Shown piece by piece: positions 22,162 through 23,103 of a DNA stretch of 64,000 bases. Source of the stretch: Escherichia coli (GTDB lineage Bacteria > Pseudomonadota > Gammaproteobacteria > Enterobacterales > Enterobacteriaceae); assembly GCF_003334815.1 (NCBI RefSeq), contig NZ_QOWO01000016.1. One strand, 5' to 3'. The position numbers and the translations under genes are program-made. A model generated the notes under the pieces. The model ran no database searches. It saw only the letters and a program-made list of their open reading frames with translations, and was not told where the DNA came from. Numbering within the stretch: the stretch's first letter is position 1; each line of letters opens with the position of its first letter.

Positions 22162-23103
22162 ATGAGCACTAAATTAACCGGCTATGTATGGGATGGTTGC
22201 GCAGCGTCAGGCATGAAATTATCCAGCGTGGCAATTATGGCCCGCCTGGCTGATTTCAGTAATGACGAAGGTGTGTGCTGGCCATCAATTGAAACCATTG
22301 CCCGTCAGATTGGCGCGGGGATGAGTACCGTCAGGACGGCTATCGCACGGCTGGAAGCAGAAGGCTGGTTAACGCGTAAGGCGCGTCGCCAGGGTAACCG
22401 CAATGCGTCGAATGTTTATCAGCTTAACGTTGCGAAGCTTCAGGCAGCGGCATTTTCTCAACTGTCAGATTCTGACCCGTCAAAATCTGACGCATCAAAA
22501 TCTGACCCGTCAAAATTTGATGCGTCGAAATCTGGCAAAAAAGCGGGTTTTCACCCGTCAGAATCTGGCGGGGATCCGTCAGTAAAATCAAAACATGATC
22601 CGTCAGATAAAAAAACTTCTCGTCCGGACGCTTCGCAACCGGACACGCAGAAGGCTGAACAGGATTTTTTAACTCGCCATCCTGATGCGGTTGTATTCAG
22701 CCCTAAAAAGCGCCAGTGGGGGACGCAGGATGATTTGACCTGCGCACAGTGGCTCTGGAAAAAAATCATCGCCCTGTACGAGCATGCCGCCGAATGTGAC
22801 GGCGAGGTGGTTCGTCCCAAAGAACCGAACTGGACAGCCTGGGCAAACGAAATTCGCCTGATGTGTGTGCAGGATGGTCGTACTCACAAACAAATCTGCG
22901 AGATGTACAGCCGCGTCAGCCGCGATCCGTTCTGGTGCCGTAACGTGCTCAGCCCGTCGAAGCTGCGGGAAAAATGGGATGAGCTTTCCCTGCGCTTATC
23001 GCCGTCCGTCAGCACGTACACAGAAAAACGCGAAGACCCGTACTTCAAAGCCAGTTACGACAATGTGGACTACAGCCAGATCCCGGCAGGATTCAGGGGG
23101 TGA
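22162..23103 (+). CDS. Replication initiation protein (O-like, with DnaT-like C-terminal domain)
   Basis: 313 aa; N-terminal winged-helix region; internal SKSD/PSK repeats; C-terminus ...DNVDYSQIPAGFRG closely matches the host DnaT C-terminus. Confidence 0.6.
   Translation: MSTKLTGYVWDGCAASGMKLSSVAIMARLADFSNDEGVCWPSIETIARQIGAGMSTVRTAIARLEAEGWLTRKARRQGNRNASNVYQLNVAKLQAAAFSQLSDSDPSKSDASKSDPSKFDASKSGKKAGFHPSESGGDPSVKSKHDPSDKKTSRPDASQPDTQKAEQDFLTRHPDAVVFSPKKRQWGTQDDLTCAQWLWKKIIALYEHAAECDGEVVRPKEPNWTAWANEIRLMCVQDGRTHKQICEMYSRVSRDPFWCRNVLSPSKLREKWDELSLRLSPSVSTYTEKREDPYFKASYDNVDYSQIPAGFRG
22465..22560. repeat. Tandem 15 bp iteron-like repeats inside the replication gene (candidate ori)
   Basis: TCTGACCCGTCAAAA / TCTGACGCATCAAAA / TCTGACCCGTCAAAA / TTTGATGCGTCGAAA in tandem, followed by further CCGTCAG motifs and an A-rich tract. 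Confidence 0.5.

Follow-up and report, generated by a model that had tools for sequence, protein, structure and literature searches.

Two described systems stand closest to the gene considered here, namely the replication initiator O of phage lambda and the Escherichia coli primosomal protein I, DnaT. In the lambda system, contact with the N-terminal part of P is ascribed to the C-terminal part of O (PMC4926192). On the host side, papers from 2024 and 2026 state that no contact of DnaC with PriA, PriB or DnaT has been demonstrated, and the recruitment mechanism in the handover from the preprimosome to DnaB-DnaC is an acknowledged gap. In the current study, we analysed a stretch of 64,000 nucleotides (nt) of E. 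coli DNA (contig NZ_QOWO01000016.1 of RefSeq assembly GCF_003334815.1; hereafter 'the window'), which carries both host dnaT and a prophage gene for a replication initiator. The two encoded proteins end in almost the same nine residues, and phage initiators with this type of tail were not found next to a P gene. This comparative pattern names a nine-residue candidate, and a partner, for the handover.

Judged by sequence comparison, the initiator is a mosaic O-like protein and no DnaT homologue. It shares with lambda O a homologous C-terminal domain (31% identity), a gene position after a cII-like gene, and a short tail behind the ...SPxKLRxKW... end of the domain. Iteron-like repeats, which may be an origin comparable to that of lambda, lie inside the gene in the linker between the domains. 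It differs from lambda O in having an HTH_36 instead of a Phage_rep_O N-terminal domain, in its tail (...SQIPAGFRG rather than ...NTDWIYGVDL), and in being followed by the gene for a PerC-family regulator where lambda O has its cognate P gene. With DnaT the initiator has in common the SQIPxGFRG end and a presumed dependence on DnaC, whereas the DnaT N-terminal domain, the acidic PriB-binding linker and the three-helix domain that binds single-stranded DNA (ssDNA) belong to DnaT alone. Moreover, DnaT is recruited by PriA, whereas the initiator would be origin-specific.

Two further groups of phage proteins are informative. Initiators that combine HTH_36 with a DnaT C-terminal domain (PHROGs 1032/1408/2509) resemble the window initiator in their N-terminal domain family, their interchangeable tails and the relation between tail and loader described below, and phrog_1032 is matched by both. 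However, their middle and C-terminal part is a DnaT bundle, in contrast to the lambda-O-type domain of the window initiator. DopC, of the domesticated DopC-DopE pair (Brezellec et al. 2017, PMC5509034), is grouped here with these proteins. The products of SfV orf39 and mEp460 gp43 (PHROG 270) have the same last 24 residues as the window initiator, the same PerC-Dam-LexA-like-RusA module and likewise no loader gene, but their bodies are only about 30% identical to it and carry a C-terminal domain of the 'AWxxYPKRxGGNSK' type. The C-terminal tail of SSB (…DDDIPF), a short linear motif that recruits genome-maintenance proteins, offers an analogy for which we claim no homology. Both are conserved terminal peptides behind a disordered linker and contain an I-P-x(0-2)-F element; the SSB tail has an acidic run and many partners, whereas the tail considered here has no acidic run and a single proposed partner, the helicase loader.

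Terminal tails and helicase loader genes

In the first contexts examined, an initiator with a WxxVL tail was followed by a Phage_lambda_P gene, one with a TDWIYG tail also by P, and one with the Rac-type tail ISEPDTEIPPGFRG by a gene for an IstB/DnaC-like AAA+ protein. For two phage initiators with a DnaT domain, P0298 (WxxFL tail) and P0332 (TDWIHG tail), a downstream P gene was predicted beforehand and was found in both cases. A third DnaT-domain initiator, P0302, has a fourth class of tail for which no prediction was made, and its neighbour is P-like; a fourth, P0305, ends in the terminal PxGF type of peptide (hereafter 'GF tail') and has no P. Every non-GF tail on a phage initiator with a DnaT domain came with a P gene, and therefore this domain does not dictate the loader.

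Tails and loader genes were counted automatically in two sets of IMG/VR loci, where dereplication of the initiators at 90% identity yielded 46 lineages. None of the lineages with a GF tail has P, eight have a DnaC-like gene and seven have no loader gene, whereas all 31 lineages with other tails have P, with no DnaC-like gene and no loader-less locus among them. Fisher's exact test gives p = 2e-12 for this association, and p = 8e-9 or 5e-5 when dereplication is carried out at 70% or 50% identity. Sampling in the reverse direction agrees with these counts. An open reading frame (ORF) lies upstream in 73 of 80 phage DnaC-like loci, and all 73 end in [IK]PxGF[RNTS](G), with one in the form IPSEFRG; an initiator lies upstream in 79 of 80 P-like loci, and 79/79 of these tails are non-GF. 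Compared with E. coli DnaC, the DnaC-like proteins of these phages are 44-49% identical and full-length.

Where a GF-tail locus lacks a DnaC-like gene, what follows the initiator differs from case to case (PerC, Dam, ParB-like, Ren-like or a gene of no assigned family), and the loader-less loci that can be placed by source name belong to Enterobacterales, with a chromosomal dnaC. A downstream ORF of about 450 amino acids (aa) in Pantoea-type loci was considered as a DnaB-like helicase and rejected, given that PHROGs identifies it as ParB-like. The PerC/YfdN protein was likewise rejected as a hidden loader on the grounds of the varied neighbours of GF-tailed initiators. The window initiator follows the pattern of its class, with a terminal PxGF and a next gene that is no loader and never P.

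P-like, DnaC-like, helicase and primase genes were sought in the prophage and none was found. The suggestion in the original prediction that this phage does not rely on a lambda P-type loader is in substance supported by the missing P gene and by a tail class that is never paired with P. Comparative evidence supports a route through host DnaC instead, and sharpens that suggestion to a hypothesis about a motif and its partner. A practical rule for reading such modules is that loader dependence can be predicted from the 10-15 residues at the C-terminal end of the initiator, and this accounts for the ability of common SfV/CPS-53-like prophages to replicate with a single replication gene.

Three classes of P-associated tail were observed, namely NTDWI[YHE]G.. 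(as in lambda O), PHWNSPEGWxDF[LI], and a longer acidic class, G..L.EP.D.EER...LD..D. To judge from their sequences, these may be P-binding counterparts of the GF tail.

The shared peptide and its modular distribution

The initiator matches phrog_391 over its full length (E = 3.2e-135; residues 1-313 align with positions 1-298 of a profile 298 positions long); its twin is labelled in RefSeq only as 'helix-turn-helix domain-containing protein'. Pfam matches comprise HTH_36 and related winged-helix models and are N-terminal only. Neither the Phage_rep_O N-terminal domain (PF04492) nor PF09524, the model named in PMC5509034 for the lambda-O C-domain region, is among the Pfam matches of the initiator. 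The relationship to lambda O emerges from tblastn against phage genomes (1e-18) and from BLASTP (3e-26, aligned over 70-277). Homology to the lambda O C-terminal domain extends over residues from about 131 to 277, with the alignment ending at SPSKLREKWDELSL, just ahead of the tail. This domain is also matched by phrog_277 and phrog_2357, and a PDB sequence search returned no solved structure for it. The iterons encode the low-complexity linker of the initiator, and by analogy with ori-lambda, which sits inside gene O at the same relative position (PMC4926192), they are probably the phage origin.

The initiator ends in YDNVDYSQIPAGFRG, and its last nine residues are identical to those of host DnaT at eight of nine positions (SQIPAGFRG versus SQIPPGFRG). 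This similarity is beyond chance, because when the 102 window ORFs that encode 100 aa or more are compared in all 5151 pairs, the next-best C-terminal match over nine residues is only 4/9. The last 30 nt (nine codons and the stop) are identical at 24/30 positions between the initiator gene and dnaT, and four codons differ synonymously; therefore, the terminal peptide has been kept at the protein level and does not reflect a recent copying of DNA. The common C terminus that the original prediction noted for the two proteins in this window is thus confirmed, but for the terminal peptide alone. BLASTP aligns nothing besides the last nine residues, which is formally the outcome that the prediction itself named as contradicting a shared domain.

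The C-terminal domain of DnaT in the cryo-EM (electron cryomicroscopy) preprimosome was modelled from the construct 84-153 (PDB 4OU7), which excludes SQIPPGFRG (PMC13377028). The DnaT tail is highly conserved. Among the 120 nearest Enterobacteriaceae proteins in the database, DnaT ends in IPxGFRG(AK) or a one-residue variant with four exceptions, which have ragged or fused ends. In a search of 1.84 billion cluster representatives, a terminal [IV]PxGF[RK][GDS] was retained by true DnaTs with as little as 32% identity, while the linker ahead of the tail in these divergent proteins has diverged beyond recognition. Orthologues at 32-45% identity, including some from AT-rich reduced genomes, keep [IV]PxGF[RK] and, in three targeted look-ups, an adjoining dnaC. 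In genomes of 412 kb and 708 kb, dnaT lies directly upstream of dnaC, and the encoded DnaT, which is 32-38% identical to that of E. coli, ends in IPDGFRDK or VPDGFRSE.

Among phages, the last 24 residues of the initiator are 83-100% identical in 55 of 57 records and 67% identical in the two remaining ones, both of mEp390. Phages with this tail include SfV, SfII, SfIV, cdtI, ST64B, mEp460 and Stx2c phages. In the records of the SfV/mEp460 type, the rest of the replication protein comes from a different family (about 30% identical), whereas in several others of the 57 the protein is a close relative of the window initiator. A mosaic joint is evident at nt 23028, since from the first codon of the tail onwards the DNA is 97% identical to mEp460, to at least position 25000. 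The tail thus travels with the downstream PerC-Dam-LexA-like-RusA block. Scans of viral contigs led by the window protein or by mEp460 gp43 returned near-identical copies only, and later queries were led with rarer sequences.

Orthologues of the initiator (56-99% identity) share the conserved end of the O-type C-terminal domain, behind which come a variable linker and one of three tails. The first is the GF class, ..D[YT]..[IV]PxGFR[GST], which includes VNHISEPDTEIPPGFRG, a sequence nearly identical to the end of DnaT over about 19 residues. The second is WN[ST]xEGWxDVL, and the third is DxxNTDWIYGIE...; lambda O, which ends in LDLTNTDWIYGVDL, is of the TDWIYG type. These classes of tail reappear on phage initiators in which the C-terminal domain is a true DnaT domain. 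In total, the GF tail was found on at least four types of C-terminal domain (lambda-O, DnaT, the 'AWxxYPKRxGGNSK' type of SfV/mEp460, and 'PEWLS..W..W') and behind at least three types of N-terminal domain (HTH_36, Phage_rep_O and DUF1376/YdaU-like). Its combination with a downstream DnaC-like gene occurs on a protein with a true Phage_rep_O N-terminal domain (L359), as well as on DUF1376/YdaU-like proteins with an 'AWxxYPKRxGGNSK' or 'PEWLS..W..W' C-terminal domain.

Proposed use of the tail and competing explanations

On balance, we regard it as probable that the prophage protein is a lambda-O-like, origin-binding initiator built of exchangeable parts, whose tail selects the loader and borrows host DnaC. 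These parts are the HTH_36 domain, presumed to bind the origin, the iteron-encoded linker, the lambda-O C-terminal domain, a second linker and the short C-terminal tail. The tail would choose the helicase loader: lambda O and its P-bearing relatives end in ...NTDWIYG.. or ...PHWNSPEGWxDFL, and the ...D(Y)SQIPxGFRG tail of the window initiator corresponds to that of DnaT, encoded upstream of dnaC, and to those of phage initiators encoded upstream of phage dnaC-like genes. The initiator would bind the iterons inside its own gene and offer its DnaT-like tail to host DnaC in DnaB6-DnaC6; loading of DnaB at the phage origin would then require no loader from the phage. The DnaB that is loaded is the same in P-type and DnaC-type systems but their tails are mutually exclusive, and therefore the tail is most simply read as a contact for the loader. 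Given that no loader is encoded by this prophage, we infer that its DnaT-mimicking tail recruits host DnaB-DnaC. IPxGFRG is thus probably the handle by which both DnaT and GF-tailed phages recruit DnaC. We likewise infer a direct contact between tail and DnaC, an equal use of this contact by DnaT, and an origin function for the repeats.

Docking of the tail was modelled with AlphaFold2 in a fusion of E. coli DnaC and the 24 C-terminal residues of DnaT, joined by a Gly-Ser linker of 30 residues. The alignment comprised 20 natural loader-tail pairs (1 host, 19 phage), and in the control the tail columns were permuted identically in every row. The per-residue confidence score (predicted local distance difference test, pLDDT) was 80-89 for the AAA+ core and 33-35 for the linker. 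The last nine residues reached 77 with the native tail, with a beta-bridge at R298, versus 53 with the permuted tail, whose final three residues fell below 50. This moderate signal is consistent with, and weakly suggestive of, motif-dependent docking of the tail on DnaC. A PDB sequence search found no DnaT-DnaC complex. In the alignment of E. coli DnaC with the 19 phage DnaC-like proteins, residue A84 is invariant. The allele dnaC1331 (A84Y) blocks PriA-PriB-DnaT-dependent loading (PMC11087952), and we consider the region of A84 to be a candidate docking site for the tail.

Several points weigh against this interpretation. In the AlphaFold2 control, the pLDDT of the permuted tail stayed above the linker level, and the readout is a per-residue score from a single-chain fusion. 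Tail and loader gene are physically adjacent, so that part of their association could reflect linkage within a mobile module. The lineages counted are only partly independent, and dereplication reduces but does not remove the inflation caused by co-transfer; moreover, the sample consists almost entirely of phages of Enterobacterales and related hosts. The use of host DnaC by the seven loader-less lineages is an assumption. Published work has proposed the N-terminal domain of DnaT, not its tail, as the recruiter of DnaB/DnaC (PMC13377028, 2026). Lastly, DnaT without residues 154-179 binds ssDNA about 2-fold more weakly (PMC4132743), and because of this the DnaT tail may have another or an additional role.

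The original prediction assigned the phage protein a DnaT-type C-terminal domain. Such a protein could be a DnaT analogue that enters or replaces the PriA-PriB-DnaT primosome, as might be suspected from the common terminal peptide and from the existence of phage initiators with a genuine DnaT domain (phrog_1408, 2509 and 1032). However, the DnaT domain PF17948, which Pfam detects in host DnaT at 5.6e-21, has no Pfam match in the initiator, whose C-terminal domain is of the lambda-O type. A comparison by hhalign of the O-type domain profile with a profile of 92 DnaT C-terminal domains gave a probability of 0.3%, and no protein in the collected set has both domains. The initiator begins with HTH_36, and BLASTP found in it neither the N-terminal oligomerisation domain nor the acidic PriB-binding linker of DnaT; what it does possess is the DnaT-type C-terminal [IV]PxGF[RK]G peptide. 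It therefore lacks the parts by which DnaT docks on PriA (C-terminal domain) and PriB (acidic linker; docking roles from PMC13377028), and a replacement of DnaT in the primosome is disfavoured for this reason. The pairing of true DnaT-domain initiators with P under non-GF tails argues in the same direction, and we judge a DnaT analogue very improbable. The part of the original prediction that stands is the recruitment of host DnaC/DnaB through imitation of DnaT, which is the best reading of the data. It is still less credible that the likeness has no function and is due to chance or to a decaying remnant of common ancestry. The alignment of the initiator with host DnaT is confined to nine residues, but 8/9 identity against a window-wide maximum of 4/9, synonymous codon differences, and near-invariance across DnaT orthologues and several phage families contradict such an origin.

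Two other explanations retain the function of the tail but assign it differently. The target of the tail may be host DnaB, or a surface formed jointly by DnaB and DnaC, instead of DnaC by itself; all such systems must finally deliver DnaB, and the AlphaFold2 test, which contained DnaC only, gave just a moderate signal. We find this unlikely, given that the same host DnaB is served by mutually exclusive tails in P and DnaC types, which points to the loader as the specificity partner. Alternatively, the tail could be a nucleic-acid-binding or self-association element for cooperative filaments, with the link to DnaC arising from co-inheritance of adjacent DNA. Compared with DnaT 84-179, DnaT 84-153 does show about 2-fold weaker and less cooperative binding to dT30 (PMC4132743), and the tail and its downstream genes do move as one mosaic block. 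Nevertheless, the tail is carried by at least four C-terminal domains, and the one pair compared by profiles is unrelated (0.3%), so that a common mode of oligomerisation or DNA binding is unlikely. Linkage also fits poorly with the varied genes downstream of loader-less initiators, and it leaves unexplained why DnaT retains the peptide at 32% identity in reduced genomes. We therefore regard the filament explanation as quite doubtful.

Beyond recruitment of host DnaC by the initiator tail, a wider proposal can be offered tentatively. The IPxGFRG peptide of DnaT could be the missing link between PriA-PriB-DnaT and DnaB6-DnaC6, and dnaT-dnaC could be a domesticated phage initiator-loader cassette. 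Phages without a loader would then take over host DnaC by the same peptide and might compete with DnaT on induction. A literature search for the tail motif returned nothing relevant, but it mostly excluded subscription papers, so an earlier mention is possible. The initiator itself is an ordinary and very common prophage protein; its unusual aspect is the insight that the tail offers into the choice of loader and into DnaT.

Feature coordinates and prophage surroundings

Table 1. Positions of the initiator gene, its parts and the host genes within the window.
Feature	Position	Strand	Basis or remark
Initiator gene, 313 aa	22162..23103	+	PHROG 391 'replication initiation O-like'
HTH_36 (winged-helix) DNA-binding N-terminal domain, residues 23-70	22228..22371	+	Pfam PF13730, 7.5e-11
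Origin-like iterons, 5-7 copies, 15-nt spacing, dyad GTCAGAWTCTGAC, then A-rich run	22464..22611		Inside initiator gene
Lambda-O-type C-terminal domain, residues about 172-279, ending in SPSKLREKWDELSLRL	22675..22998	+	BLASTP, tblastn, PHROGs
24-aa tail module REDPYFKASYDNVDYSQIPAGFRG, residues 290-313	23029..23100	+	57 phage records
Core motif SQIPAGFRG, residues 305-313	23074..23100	+	Part common to DnaT
PerC/YfdN-family regulator, no helicase loader	23100..23594	+	Gene next downstream of initiator
Host dnaT, 179 aa, DnaT domain at residues 89-154, then disordered tail	4188..4727	-	NCBIfam NF002770, 349.6 bits
DnaT core motif SQIPPGFRG, residues 171-179	4191..4217	-	
Host dnaC, directly downstream of dnaT	3448..4185	-	Proposed target of both tails

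On the minus strand, dnaT extends from an ATG at 4727 to a stop codon at 4188-4190. The mechanically called ORF begins at a TTG four codons upstream of this ATG (4728-4739) and would thus encode 183 rather than 179 aa. The ATG is probably the correct start, because the NCBIfam DnaT model covers positions 1-179 counted from it.

The prophage is of the SfV/CPS-53-like type. Its gene order begins with an integrase, an Abi-alpha-like gene, YfdR/Q/P homologues, a CI-like repressor, Cro, YmfL, DUF4222 and the initiator, and continues with the PerC/YfdN regulator, a Dam methylase, LexA-like, RusA, KilA-N, DUF968, Q, lysis genes and myovirus morphogenesis genes. The homologues of CPS-53 YfdR (5'-deoxynucleotidase), YfdQ and YfdP are located at 17297-19532 on the minus strand. 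YfdR reportedly binds DnaA, and chromosomal initiation is reported to be inhibited when the yfdQRST cluster is overexpressed (PMC4776307). Given these homologues and this link to DnaA, the prophage may act on host initiation besides borrowing host DnaC.

Beside the integrase (12717-13940), a 595-aa ORF at 14104-15891 (+) has an Abi-alpha-like abortive-infection match (phrog_1841, 2e-70). This segment is missing from an otherwise colinear prophage in NZ_CP191804, and the ORF is likely a defence cargo gene at the prophage end.

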